From the NCBI GenBank assembly GCA_021613535.1, contig CP075492.1, forward strand, positions 10,106,001 through 10,170,000: a DNA stretch of 64,000 bases. Direction: 5' to 3'. Positions 60,556-63,591 of this stretch are shown piece by piece. Source of the DNA: Adineta vaga. Taxonomy: Eukaryota; Animalia; Rotifera. The position numbers and the translations under genes are program-made. Numbering within the stretch: position 1 is the first letter of the stretch; each line of letters starts with the position of its first letter. Under the pieces are notes generated by a model that saw only the letters and a list, made by a program, of their open reading frames with translations, had not been told where the DNA came from and did not search any database.

Positions 60556-63500
60556 ATGAGCAAACAAAAACCACGTATCGCACTCACATCAACAACAGCA
60601 GTGGCCCGCCGACGTCTTGCTCAGAATTATTTGCTTATATGGCTCGATGCGAATATTGACGAAAATGACAACGATTGTCAAAACACTTTGAAACAGTTAC
60701 GAGCTGTTGTCAACGATGTCACTTTGCACACGCAACCAACAGATTGTATCGAGTTTCTCAATAGCATCGGTAATGAAAAAGCATTTGTCATAACTTCAGG
60801 ATCTCTCGGTCAACATCTTGTTCCCGATATCCATGATATACCCAAGTTGGATAGCATCTATATCTTTTGTGGTAATAAATCTCGACATCAACAGTGGACG
60901 AAACAATGGATCAAAATCAAAGGTGTACACACCGATATTAAGTATATCTGTGAAGCGCTCCAAACAGATGTCAAACAATGTAATCAAGATTTGACTTCAA
61001 TCAGTTTTGTAGGCTCCACTGAAGGAACTAACAGTGAAAACTTGAATCAATTAGATCCAACATTTATGTATACTCAAATATTCAAGGACATACTCCTCGA
61101 AATGAAATATGATCAAAAGGCGGTCGAAGACTTAGCAGTTCATTGCCGTGCTTTGTATGCAGGAAATAAACATGAATTAGATATTATCAAAGAATTTGAA
61201 CGCACTTATCGAGTGGAACAAGCGATTTGGTGGTATACACGTGAGTGCTTCGCTTTCCAAATACTCAATCGAGCACTTCGGAATCTCGAATCAGATACAA
61301 TCATCAAAATGGGCTTCTTCATGTGCGATCTGCATAAACAAATTGTCGAATTTCATCAACAACAGATCAGTAGTTATGGCAGAGACTCCTTTCTAGTGTA
61401 TCGAGGGCAAGGTCTTTCGAAAACAGATTTTGAGAAATTGGTGAAAATCAAAGGTGGTCTGATATCATTCAACAACTTTCTTTCCACCAGTAAAAAGCAA
61501 GAAGTATCTCTGGGATTTGCTGAGAGTGCATTGAATAATCCAAATACGGTTGGCATACTTTTTGTTATCTCGATTGATCCTCGAGTTACAAAAGTGCCAT
61601 TCGCTTGTGTTGATAAGGTTAGCTATTTCAAAACAGAAGCAGAAGTTCTATTCTCTATGCACACAGTATTTCGAGTGCATTCAATCAAACAATTGCAGAA
61701 GAATAGTGGATTGTATCAAGTAGAACTTCGACTTACGGGTGATGATGATGAACAACTTCAGATACTCACTCAACGTATTCGAACGGAGGCTACCGATGAC
61801 ACAGGGTTGGAACGATTGGGTAATTTGTTACTCAAAATAGGTCATTTTAATCAAGCTGAAGAACTGTACAAAGCGCTGCTTGATCAGACATGTGACATGA
61901 ATGACAAAGGGCTTTACTATCATCAGCTTGGATATGTCTATGATGATCAAGGTGATTATAAAAAAGCTGTTGAATACTACGACAAAGCACTTGAAATTCG
62001 ACAAAAAACTCTTCCTTCTAATCATCCTTCATTGGCTACTTCTTACAGTAACATCGGATTGGTGTATAGCAACATGGGAGAGTATTCGAAAGCACTCTCA
62101 TACTACGACAAAGCACTAGAGATTCAACAAAAATCTCTTCCTTCTAATCATCCTTCATTGGCTACTTCTTACAGTAACATCGGATTGGTGTATAGCAACA
62201 TGGGAGAGTATTCGAAAGCACTCTCATACTACGACAAAGCACTAGAGATTCAACAAAAATCTCTTCCTTCTAATCATCCTTCATTGGCTACTTCTTACAG
62301 TAACATCGGAACAGTGTATGACAACATGGGAGAGTCTTCAAAAGCACTTTCATATTACGACAAAGCACTAGAGATTGAACAAAAATCTCTTCCTTCTAAT
62401 CATCCATATTTGGCTACTTCTTACAGTAACATCGGAACAGTGTATGACAACATGGGAGAGTCTTCAAAAGCACTCTCATACTACGACAAAGCACTAGAGA
62501 TTCGACAAAAATCTCTTCCTTCTAATCATCCTGATTTGGCTACTTCTTACAATAACATCGGATCAGTGTATGACAACATGGGAGAGTCTTCAAAAGCACT
62601 CTCATACTACGACAAAGCACTAGAGATTCGACAAAAATCTCTTCCTTCTAATCATCCTTCATTGGCTACTTCTTACAGTAACATCGGATCAGTGTATGAC
62701 AACATGGGAGAGTATTCGAAAGCACTCTCATACTACGACAAAGCACTAGAGATTCAACAAAAATCTCTTCCTTCTAATCATCCTTCATTGGCTACTTCTT
62801 ACAGTAACATCGGAACAGTGTATGACAACATGGGAGAGTCTTCAAAAGCACTTTCATATTACGACAAAGCACTAGAGATTCGACAAAAATCTCTTCCTTC
62901 TAATCATCCTTCATTGGCTACTTCTTACAATAACATCGGATTGGTGTATGACAACATGGGAGAGTCTTCAAAAGCACTCTCATACTACGACAAAGCACTA
63001 GAGATTGAACAAAAATCTCTTCCTTCTAATCATCCATATTTGGCTACTTCTTACAGTAACATCGGATCAGTGTATGACAACATGGGAGAGTCTTCAAAAG
63101 CACTCTCATACTACGACAAAGCACTAGAGATTCGACAAAAATCTCTTCCTTCTAATCATCCTTCATTGGCTACTTCTTACAGTAACATCGGAACAGTGTA
63201 TGACAACATGGGAGAGTCTTCAAAAGCACTTTCATATTACGAAAAAGCACTAGAGATTGAACAAAAATCTCTTCCTTCTAATCATCCATATTTGGCTACT
63301 TCTTACAGTAACATCGGATCAGTGTATGACAACATGGGAGAGTATTCGAAAGCACTCTCATACTACGACAAAGCACTAGAGATTCAACAAAAATCTCTTC
63401 CTTCTAATCATCCTGATTTGGCTACTTCATACAGTAACATCGGATCGGTGTATGACAACATGGGAGAGTATTCGAAAGCACTCTCATACTACGACAAAGC

Positions 63501-63591
63501 ACTAGAGATTCTACGAAGATCTCTTCCTTCTAATCATCCTCATGTCAAAAGCGTAATAAGAAGTATTGAAATTGTAAAACAGAAGCTGTAA
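60556..63591 (+). CDS. Intronless mono-ADP-ribosyltransferase (R-S-E/ARTC, Vip2/exoenzyme-like) fused to a C-terminal TPR array
   Basis: WWYTRE..LNRALR, VYRGQ (R), NNFLSTS (STS), TEAEVLF (ExE); N-terminal alpha/beta domain (LIWLDANID); then 42-aa TPR units; no signal peptide. Confidence 0.92.
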   Translation: MSKQKPRIALTSTTAVARRRLAQNYLLIWLDANIDENDNDCQNTLKQLRAVVNDVTLHTQPTDCIEFLNSIGNEKAFVITSGSLGQHLVPDIHDIPKLDSIYIFCGNKSRHQQWTKQWIKIKGVHTDIKYICEALQTDVKQCNQDLTSISFVGSTEGTNSENLNQLDPTFMYTQIFKDILLEMKYDQKAVEDLAVHCRALYAGNKHELDIIKEFERTYRVEQAIWWYTRECFAFQILNRALRNLESDTIIKMGFFMCDLHKQIVEFHQQQISSYGRDSFLVYRGQGLSKTDFEKLVKIKGGLISFNNFLSTSKKQEVSLGFAESALNNPNTVGILFVISIDPRVTKVPFACVDKVSYFKTEAEVLFSMHTVFRVHSIKQLQKNSGLYQVELRLTGDDDEQLQILTQRIRTEATDDTGLERLGNLLLKIGHFNQAEELYKALLDQTCDMNDKGLYYHQLGYVYDDQGDYKKAVEYYDKALEIRQKTLPSNHPSLATSYSNIGLVYSNMGEYSKALSYYDKALEIQQKSLPSNHPSLATSYSNIGLVYSNMGEYSKALSYYDKALEIQQKSLPSNHPSLATSYSNIGTVYDNMGESSKALSYYDKALEIEQKSLPSNHPYLATSYSNIGTVYDNMGESSKALSYYDKALEIRQKSLPSNHPDLATSYNNIGSVYDNMGESSKALSYYDKALEIRQKSLPSNHPSLATSYSNIGSVYDNMGEYSKALSYYDKALEIQQKSLPSNHPSLATSYSNIGTVYDNMGESSKALSYYDKALEIRQKSLPSNHPSLATSYNNIGLVYDNMGESSKALSYYDKALEIEQKSLPSNHPYLATSYSNIGSVYDNMGESSKALSYYDKALEIRQKSLPSNHPSLATSYSNIGTVYDNMGESSKALSYYEKALEIEQKSLPSNHPYLATSYSNIGSVYDNMGEYSKALSYYDKALEIQQKSLPSNHPDLATSYSNIGSVYDNMGEYSKALSYYDKALEILRRSLPSNHPHVKSVIRSIEIVKQKL
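61975..63540 (+). repeat. Coding tandem array of ~12.4 near-identical 126-nt units (42-aa TPRs)
   Basis: The unit tactacgacaaagcactagagatt...aatcatcc...gctacttcttaca.taacatcgga...aacatgggagag recurs every 126 nt. Confidence 0.97.

Follow-up and report, generated by a model that had tools for sequence, protein, structure and literature searches.

The gene and its product

The window considered here is a 64,000-nucleotide stretch of DNA from Adineta vaga, a bdelloid rotifer (GenBank assembly GCA_021613535.1, contig CP075492.1, positions 10,106,001 to 10,170,000, forward strand). Our subject is a gene in its final part, the product of which, P0001, is predicted to join a receiver-like fold, a toxin-like ADP-ribosyltransferase (ART) and a long array of tetratricopeptide repeats (TPRs) in a single chain. 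The gene runs on the forward strand from an ATG at 60556 to a stop codon at 63589-63591 as one open frame of 1011 amino acids, the intronless frame proposed in a first-pass annotation made from the sequence letters. Contigs from runs X10 and X12, some of them with zero differences from the window, span 60446 to ~63576 and leave the flanking bins uncovered. Cover of the gene is broad in X10, X17 and X18 and thin in X19, and the RNA contigs contain no intron joint within it. X10, X17, X18 and X19 (X12 is not among them) are taken to be RNA because GT..AG joints are seen in their contigs across the neighboring myosin gene. The gene is real, intronless, and transcribed. Its features, all on the forward strand, are as follows.

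60446..60555 (+): transcribed leader, likely 5' untranslated region (gapless contig 60446-60822 of run X12)
60556..63591 (+): intronless gene for P0001, 1011 amino acids, predicted pseudo-receiver, ART and TPR array (open reading frame and RNA contig cover)
60628..60990 (+): predicted receiver (REC/CheY-like) fold, residues 25-145 (AlphaFold2 model, VIA structure search)
60991..61101 (+): conserved linker strand and helix, residues 146-182 (AlphaFold2 model, alignment)
61102..61740 (+): ART domain, residues 183-395, helical part and beta core (Pfam PF03496 and PF01129, Foldseek, VIA)
61402..61404 (+): catalytic-motif Arg283 (VYRGQ), in 118/121 close and 141/143 distant rows
61483..61491 (+): STS motif S310-T311-S312 (FLSTS), in 120, 118 and 119 of 121 close sequences, respectively
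61636..61644 (+): E361-A362-E363 (ExE) motif, E361 in 113/121 and E363 in 118/121 close sequences, ExE in 123/140 distant rows
61804..62010 (+): two divergent N-terminal TPR helix pairs, residues 417-485 (Pfam, AlphaFold2 model)
62011..63522 (+): twelve tandem 126-nt (42-amino acid) TPR units, residues 486-989 (exact units, mosaic)
63523..63588 (+): C-terminal capping helix (sequence)

Between 61631 and 61998, a second version of the sequence occurs in both DNA and RNA contigs, beside versions that match the window and with ~22 differences per 240-370 nt. It is either a divergent allele or a very close paralogue, and it is transcribed too. The closest named protein among the best 120 matches is an A. 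vaga gene model, P0002, which is 87% identical over residues 1-420; it aligns up to about one repeat unit and then continues as unrelated sequence, and is either a gene model that bridges a break in the array or an allele from which the array has been lost.

A receiver-like fold at the N terminus

Residues 1-525 were aligned with 142 of 149 new representatives of clusters at 50% identity, seven rows that were long or matched in two stretches being excluded, and an AlphaFold2 model built from this alignment has a mean predicted local distance difference test score (pLDDT) of 93.6 and a predicted template modeling score (pTM) of 0.89. Residues 25-145 form a (β/α)5 domain that retains a pLDDT of 92.7 when modeled alone. 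In a VIA structure search with this domain, 41 of the 50 top rows carry the words receiver, response regulator or two-component in their titles, with Z scores of 12.2-10.5, a root-mean-square deviation (rmsd) of 2.2-3.4 Å for most rows and 4-15% identity. Foldseek, given the isolated domain, places arginine-decarboxylase chains first (E 7e-4), and the VIA result is the clearer of the two. Among Pfam and NCBIfam families, no receiver match to P0001 was found, and PADLOC and NCBIfam returned nothing relevant for the N-terminal half. The domain was initially described only as an α/β domain, which is correct as far as it goes but misses the likeness to CheY.

Receivers carry their phospho-acceptor Asp at the end of β3, and here that place is taken by Ser81, which is Ser in 111 of 143 rows; Asp is not among the six commonest states at this position, and 20 of 143 rows have Asp at position 82. 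The acidic residue at the end of β1, D31, is retained in 111 of 143 rows. A Cys (C105) lies at the end of β4, and H125-T126, with no Lys, follow β5. With these positions taken from the strands of the model rather than from a residue-level superposition, the N-terminal domain is, as modeled, a pseudo-receiver in which the residues of phosphorylation are missing.

The linker that follows contains three nearly invariant residues, F170, Y172 and K177. TPR matches in the VIA search begin, on the model, at residues 166-177, and from these alignment ranges we predict that the helix at 168-182 packs against the helices of the first TPRs. Receiver, ART and first TPRs are placed with confidence relative to one another in the model, and the stacked helix may offer a path by which the enzyme could be regulated, whether P0001 binds and modifies a target or senses a ligand and triggers a response.

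An ADP-ribosyltransferase domain of the R-S-E class

Residues 1-425 match two Pfam families just below their cut-offs, namely ADPrib_exo_Tox (E = 5.3e-5, 23.1 bits against 23.4) and ART (E = 1.2e-4, 21.9 bits against 22.3), and the relatives P0223 and P0247 exceed the cut-offs that P0001 narrowly misses. A PDB sequence search with the same residues gave no real match. The best Foldseek matches of the 1-525 model, at E 4e-6 to 1e-5, are the bacterial enzymes HopU1 (E 4.2e-6), the C3 exoenzymes (6.5e-6) and Vis, with SpvB and CDTa also among the ART matches; VIA aligns 3u0j over residues 175-394 (Z 14.4, 189 aligned, rmsd 3.7) and 6drh over residues 185-395 (Z 13.3). The R-STS-ExE motifs read from the sequence at the outset are all in place (R283, S310-T311-S312 and E361-A362-E363), and among the distant relatives R, S and ExE are together intact in 119 of the 140 rows that cover them.

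ExE marks C2-like and QxE C3-like enzymes (PMC7764402), and the ExE motif suggests that the P0001 ART would be arginine-directed. The spacer from R to [YF]xST, at 24 residues, falls below the 27-60 of the toxin pattern given in the same source. No transmembrane helix was found, the maximum 19-residue hydropathy being 1.44, in a β strand of the ART, and reading of the sequence reveals no hydrophobic segment at either end and no signal stretch at the N terminus. This agrees with the initial view that the protein has neither signal peptide nor membrane anchor helix, and supports, at the level of sequence, a cytosolic protein with an intact R-S-ExE ART.

A mosaic TPR array of near-identical units

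Two divergent helix pairs are followed by twelve exact units, in keeping with the twelve or more TPRs first counted. The units have a mean identity of 0.94 in DNA and 0.91 in protein, and their differences are confined to 20 columns of the 126 nucleotides. All four gametes occur at 30 of 99 informative site pairs across the units, which are therefore mosaics. We rejected the possibility that the array is an assembly artifact: distinct variants are combined in a mosaic within one open frame, and no units other than 1 and 2 are identical. The array had been called variable, which holds for a few amino acid positions and not for the remainder, which is nearly identical from unit to unit.

In units 1-11, amino acid variation falls at unit positions 7, 13, 17, 20, 25, 33 and 39. 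Among close relatives, with P0001 and P0002 removed, entropy peaks at positions 20, 39, 17, 7 and 21, so that four of the seven positions variable in P0001 are among the top five of the family (p = 0.0015). Unit position 10 is TPR position 2 in the register of Pfam TPR_1, from which it follows that unit positions 10, 13, 17, 20 and 21 are TPR positions 2, 5, 9, 12 and 13, the concave positions that bind ligand; the conserved Asn14 of the unit is TPR position 6, where Asn contacts the peptide backbone (PMC1261162).

Of the best 80 of 487 confirmed metagenome loci, the ART motif lies within one open reading frame in 79, and in 62 that frame also holds upstream sequence of receiver length and at least 2 units; 51 are distinct genes. 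For the 14 of these with at least 3 core units and a mean unit identity of at least 0.78, we compared nonsynonymous with synonymous change among units within each gene (pN/pS). The ratio is 2.28 at position 17 (bootstrap interval 1.51-3.42), 1.80 at position 20 (1.19-2.62) and 2.92 at position 39 (1.99-4.29); at positions 7, 10 and 21, it is 1.4-1.5 with intervals that span 1, and at most scaffold positions it is below 0.5. These are values from simple counting, uncorrected for 42 tests or for the relatedness of genes, several of the 14 being related. In P0001 alone, pN is 0.282 at five such positions against a pS of 0.086, and 0.012 elsewhere. The same focus on the groove is seen in the TPRs of fungal NOD-like receptors (NLRs) (PMC4986451), and the early comparison of the array with fungal NLR repeats is upheld in its high internal identity, its mosaic units and its excess of change on the concave face.

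P0001 is nevertheless extreme for its family, most members of which have older, fixed arrays. Mean unit identity reaches at least 80% in DNA in 9 of 34 metagenome genes, a proportion to be read with the tendency of short-read assembly to under-represent young arrays.

Apparent exchange of arrays between loci

Across the 406 pairs formed by 29 genes, four-fold sites of the receiver-ART core have a median identity of 0.37, and those of the arrays 0.58. Locus L082 stands apart from the others, in that its core has only 49-52% protein identity to those of L017, L030, L033, L055 and L056, with 0.33-0.39 at four-fold sites, whereas its array matches theirs at 0.88-0.93 of four-fold sites. With arrays about 90% identical at silent sites and cores 50% diverged, the comparison points to exchange of arrays between old paralogues, with the qualification that L082 comes from one assembly only and may be a chimera. 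Its units agree with their best matches at 109-117 of 126 nucleotides and hence are not exact copies. Exchange between genes has been argued in the same way for the hnwd family of Podospora (PMC2873952).

Extent and origin of the family

With candidates clustered at 90% identity, 2,894 of 7,574 pass E 0.001; at 50% identity, there are 5,995 clusters, 1,476 of them at E 1e-30. All named matches among the best 120 are bdelloid, and of 10 distant representatives looked up, the two that carry a species name are both Adineta. The nearest Atlas clusters are those of Rotifera, with a ciliate-labeled cluster (0.77) and a bacterial one (0.89) as leads only. The suggestion in the first-pass annotation of a numerous bdelloid family is supported by these counts. 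Among the names given to relatives by automatic annotation are 'Kinesin light chain', 'Multifunctional fusion protein' and 'NAD(P)(+)--arginine ADP-ribosyltransferase'. The arginine-ART Gene Ontology (GO) term GO:0003956 is attached to 431 genes of A. vaga and 366 of A. ricciae (PMC11258130, supplementary file 14), and arginine-ART genes are listed there among candidates for horizontal transfer. The folds, the absence of introns and this listing make it plausible that the receiver and ART parts came from bacteria.

Searches of prokaryotic genome contigs gave 105 pattern matches and two loci, both of which we read as contamination and rejected as prokaryotic copies. L001 is a 1.95-kb contig of 35% GC. 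L002:1-7373, filed in a bacterial genome, passes from GC-rich genes resembling those of sugar synthesis to an AT-rich, broken member of the rotifer family, and is probably a chimeric contig contaminating that genome. Viral contigs gave 0 of 309, phages none, and plasmids one weak Vibrio ART-domain match (E 0.04), in searches whose patterns were tuned to the rotifer family, so that a bacterial donor is compatible with these negatives.

A second ART motif was seen in none of 19 loci of at least 9 kb, and there is no second copy in the window. Local clusters of the family do exist, although the P0001 gene is alone in its window: L055 and L060 share one 33-kb metagenome contig, and several of P0046, P0050, P0087, P0105 and P0293 lie on contigs of 1,294,145 nt in A. 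steineri. P0328, which belongs to the cluster of P0004, has 1,463 amino acids and is labeled protein-kinase-domain-containing; it is a possible fusion or mis-joined model.

A literature search found no description of the family; its cover of subscription journals was thin, and papers on bdelloid genomes, or their supplements, may mention the family in passing. The available parts of PMC6321704 (on placozoan NLRs), PMC3417536 (a review of conflict systems), PMC9503650, PMC2861651 and the Tiamat preprint do not describe it. Neither the receiver fold nor the selection focused on the groove nor the exchange of arrays appears to have been described within that literature; the ART and TPR labels are already present in automatic annotation.

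Genomic setting

The window has a GC content of 27-36% and contains ordinary intron-bearing animal genes (myosin, a Mab-21 gene, and adenosine deaminase). The myosin heavy chain gene (43066-52700, +) is spliced in four RNA runs and served as the RNA control. A Mab-21 family exon (28732-29592, -) encodes nucleotidyltransferase and C-terminal domains by Pfam. The 434-amino acid frame at 39359-40663 (+) has no Pfam match at 0.01 and a weak match to dimethylargininase (E 0.043); it resembles an enzyme with the amidinotransferase fold and may be of foreign origin. Just upstream of the P0001 gene, at 55868-59284 (-), are three frames, 24-50% similar to one another, with cysteine motifs and hydrophobic segments, no Pfam match and sparse RNA contig cover; they resemble a repeated-module membrane protein of no known family.

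Comparison with known systems

P0001 has much in common with the fungal NLRs that carry repeats of high internal conservation, such as Pa_2_10340 and the HNWD proteins het-d/e/r of Podospora. Both have near-identical shuffled units, change on the concave face and an enzyme N-terminal to the repeats. Both exchange units within genes and, apparently, between genes, and the repeats are 42-residue TPRs of the kinesin-light-chain type, as in PDB 4Y6W and 4Y6C, of which 4Y6W was matched at E 3e-32. Unlike the fungal proteins, P0001 resides in an animal, has an ART as its putative effector and has no NACHT/NB-ARC hub, and no allele-level hypervariability was found in typical members of its family. 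No NACHT or NB-ARC domain is among the Pfam matches listed for P0001 or for 13 long or odd relatives; residues 1-425 match only the two ART families, the model assigns them all to receiver, linker and ART, and the remainder is TPR. The first-pass description of an NLR-like design without an NTPase hub is therefore apt in its lack of an NTPase and its C-terminal superstructure-forming repeats, but P0001 is not an NLR.

With the bacterial R-S-E mono-ART toxins (HopU1, C3, Vis, SpvB, CDTa and the 6DRH toxin), P0001 shares the fold and the R/STS/[QE]xE motifs, with ExE in its case. It differs in having only 14-22% identity to them, no delivery or translocation part, and a fused receiver fold and TPR array. 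The vertebrate ARTC1-5 belong to the same R-S-E class, ARTC1 being arginine-specific (PMC10789625), but are five glycosylphosphatidylinositol-anchored or secreted proteins, whereas P0001 is intronless and multidomain, with no signal or anchor and hundreds of paralogues. The TPR-CHAT and glycosyltransferase-TPR expansions of corals come close in design, with an enzyme fused directly to a length-variable TPR array, no NACHT and hundreds of copies; they differ in their enzyme, a caspase-like protease or a glycosyltransferase, and no receiver fold is reported in the available part of that source (PMC12314368). Compared with CheY-like receivers, including the atypical non-phosphorylated ones, P0001 has the (β/α)5 fold and the acidic end of β1 but not the Asp of β3, the Thr/Ser of β4 or the Lys of β5. 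In kinesin light chain, the TPRs are preceded by an N-terminal coiled coil that binds the heavy chain. The N-terminal half of P0001 is receiver and ART and the likeness is confined to the TPRs, so that we rejected this identity.

Proposed function and alternatives

The reading we favor, at a confidence that falls somewhat short of even, is that P0001 is one of a very large bdelloid family of putative cytosolic bind-and-modify enzymes that together form a standing defense repertoire against foreign proteins. The TPR array would grip a particular protein of a microbe, a virus or another invader, and the ART joined to it, arginine-directed by virtue of its ExE motif, would tag an arginine and so disable the target. 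Conserved Asn at TPR positions 5-6 would hold the peptide backbone while TPR positions 2, 9, 12 and 13 and the loop-side unit positions 7 and 39 read side chains, giving each gene its own binding code. The receiver fold, which would not be open to phosphorylation, may serve in packing, docking or damping and so hold the enzyme inactive in the absence of a bound target. New codes would arise in bursts of unit duplication, shuffling and inter-locus exchange and then be held fixed, P0001 being a recent case, and the repertoire would be constitutive rather than induced. Binding and modifying is the simplest proposal for a protein that combines in one chain a conserved enzyme and a peptide-binding groove that varies, and that has no nucleotide switch. 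A role in conflict would account for the hundreds of codes, for the selection on the groove and for the bursts in which arrays are renewed. We are more doubtful of the fuller proposition that bdelloids carry in their germline hundreds of programmable 'reader-writer' enzymes as a repertoire, in which a toxin-derived ART is aimed by a modular 42-amino acid TPR code, its units being subject to duplication, shuffling and transfer between unrelated loci. This would provide an animal with intracellular defense that has no NLR hub and is diversified by non-sexual recombination in a lineage without ordinary sex.

Several observations weigh against a defense repertoire. In 11 clusters of near-identical copies of members with older arrays, 10 of the clusters named A. 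steineri and partial and mis-joined members being excluded, the six specificity positions are polymorphic at 7 of 282 sites compared with 58 of 1,690 in the scaffold (p = 0.48). Ten of the 11 have a constant number of repeats; the threshold of 90% identity by which the clusters are formed necessarily leaves very divergent alleles outside them. The units of 117 close relatives have a median within-protein identity of 0.56, with only one relative reaching 0.8, and of 202 units only 67 are matched most closely within their own gene; both indicate older arrays. TPRs in general vary at their concave positions (PMC1261162), and such variation is not by itself a sign of immunity. After fungal infection, GO:0003956 is enriched among down-regulated horizontally acquired genes (PMC11258130, file 14), with 6 of 431 A. 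vaga genes at 7 h (false discovery rate (FDR) 4e-5), 19 of 431 at 24 h (FDR 1.2e-12) and 8 of 366 A. ricciae genes (FDR 0.024), and it appears in no up-regulated sheet of that file; these figures are for the arginine-ART set as a whole, which may include members of the P0001 family. The main text of PMC11258130, where available, makes no mention of ARTs or TPRs. An infection-induced antifungal role is accordingly disfavored. Desiccation and spaceflight, too, are accompanied by shifts in protein ADP-ribosylation terms, which are there read as poly(ADP-ribose) polymerases (PMC10809525, PMC12220480). Codes fixed within species, together with down-regulation driven by the fungus, fit a standing repertoire that is aimed elsewhere than at that fungus.

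An NLR-like protein, in which the TPRs detect a foreign ligand and release the ART to modify a host protein or drain NAD+, leading to defense or cell death, with the receiver in place of the NOD switch, seems to us unlikely. Its repeats behave as do those of fungal NLRs (PMC4986451, PMC2873952), the helix at 168-182 within the confident receiver-ART-TPR arrangement provides a possible allosteric path, and the strong family-wide conservation of the enzyme core is to be expected of many sensors with one output. With neither an NTPase domain nor a phospho-acceptor, however, the protein has no known switch. Cell suicide would, moreover, be costly to bdelloids, which have a fixed cell number and syncytial tissues. 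The family might instead write arginine ADP-ribose on the rotifer's own proteins in stress, desiccation or development, with a fixed client for each paralogue in the manner of substrate adaptors. The fixed codes, the constitutive transcription of the P0001 gene, the down-regulation of GO:0003956 on infection (PMC11258130) and the movement of ADP-ribosylation terms under abiotic stress (PMC10809525, PMC12220480) would all be accommodated by such endogenous signaling, but thousands of divergent clusters, a groove pN/pS above 1, ongoing amplification and apparent inter-locus exchange are hard to reconcile with stable self clients, and on balance we judge it unlikely.

Largely neutral proliferation, by which an acquired gene has spread by duplication and the P0001 array is slippage without function, is a quite improbable account of a transcribed gene in a family that retains its catalytic residues in 119 of 140 rows and has a scaffold under strong purifying selection with change focused on the groove; homogenization of units can, nevertheless, occur without selection, and P0002 loses its array after about one unit. 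More improbable still is the allorecognition that the first-pass annotation had entertained, a self/non-self typing of rotifer clones comparable with that of het-e in Podospora. The high internal conservation and mosaic units of the P0001 gene would suit such a role, as would the differences between the window and short-read contigs of other runs at 63504-63518, within the last units, but specificity positions without excess polymorphism and a stable repeat number, in clusters at or above 90% identity, do not bear it out. Moreover, we know of no tissue fusion between individual rotifers.

Implications

It has long been asked how bdelloids, lacking ordinary sex, keep up with their parasites, and this family, at present hidden under automatic labels, is a concrete and testable candidate for a generator of diversity: several hundred cytosolic toxin-like enzymes, with a binding surface that is rewritten by shuffling and by exchange between loci. 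The R-S-E enzymes so far characterized in animals are lumenal or extracellular, and the family would be an arginine-ART system of the cytosol; it would also put a bacterial receiver fold to an unusual use in a protein of an animal.

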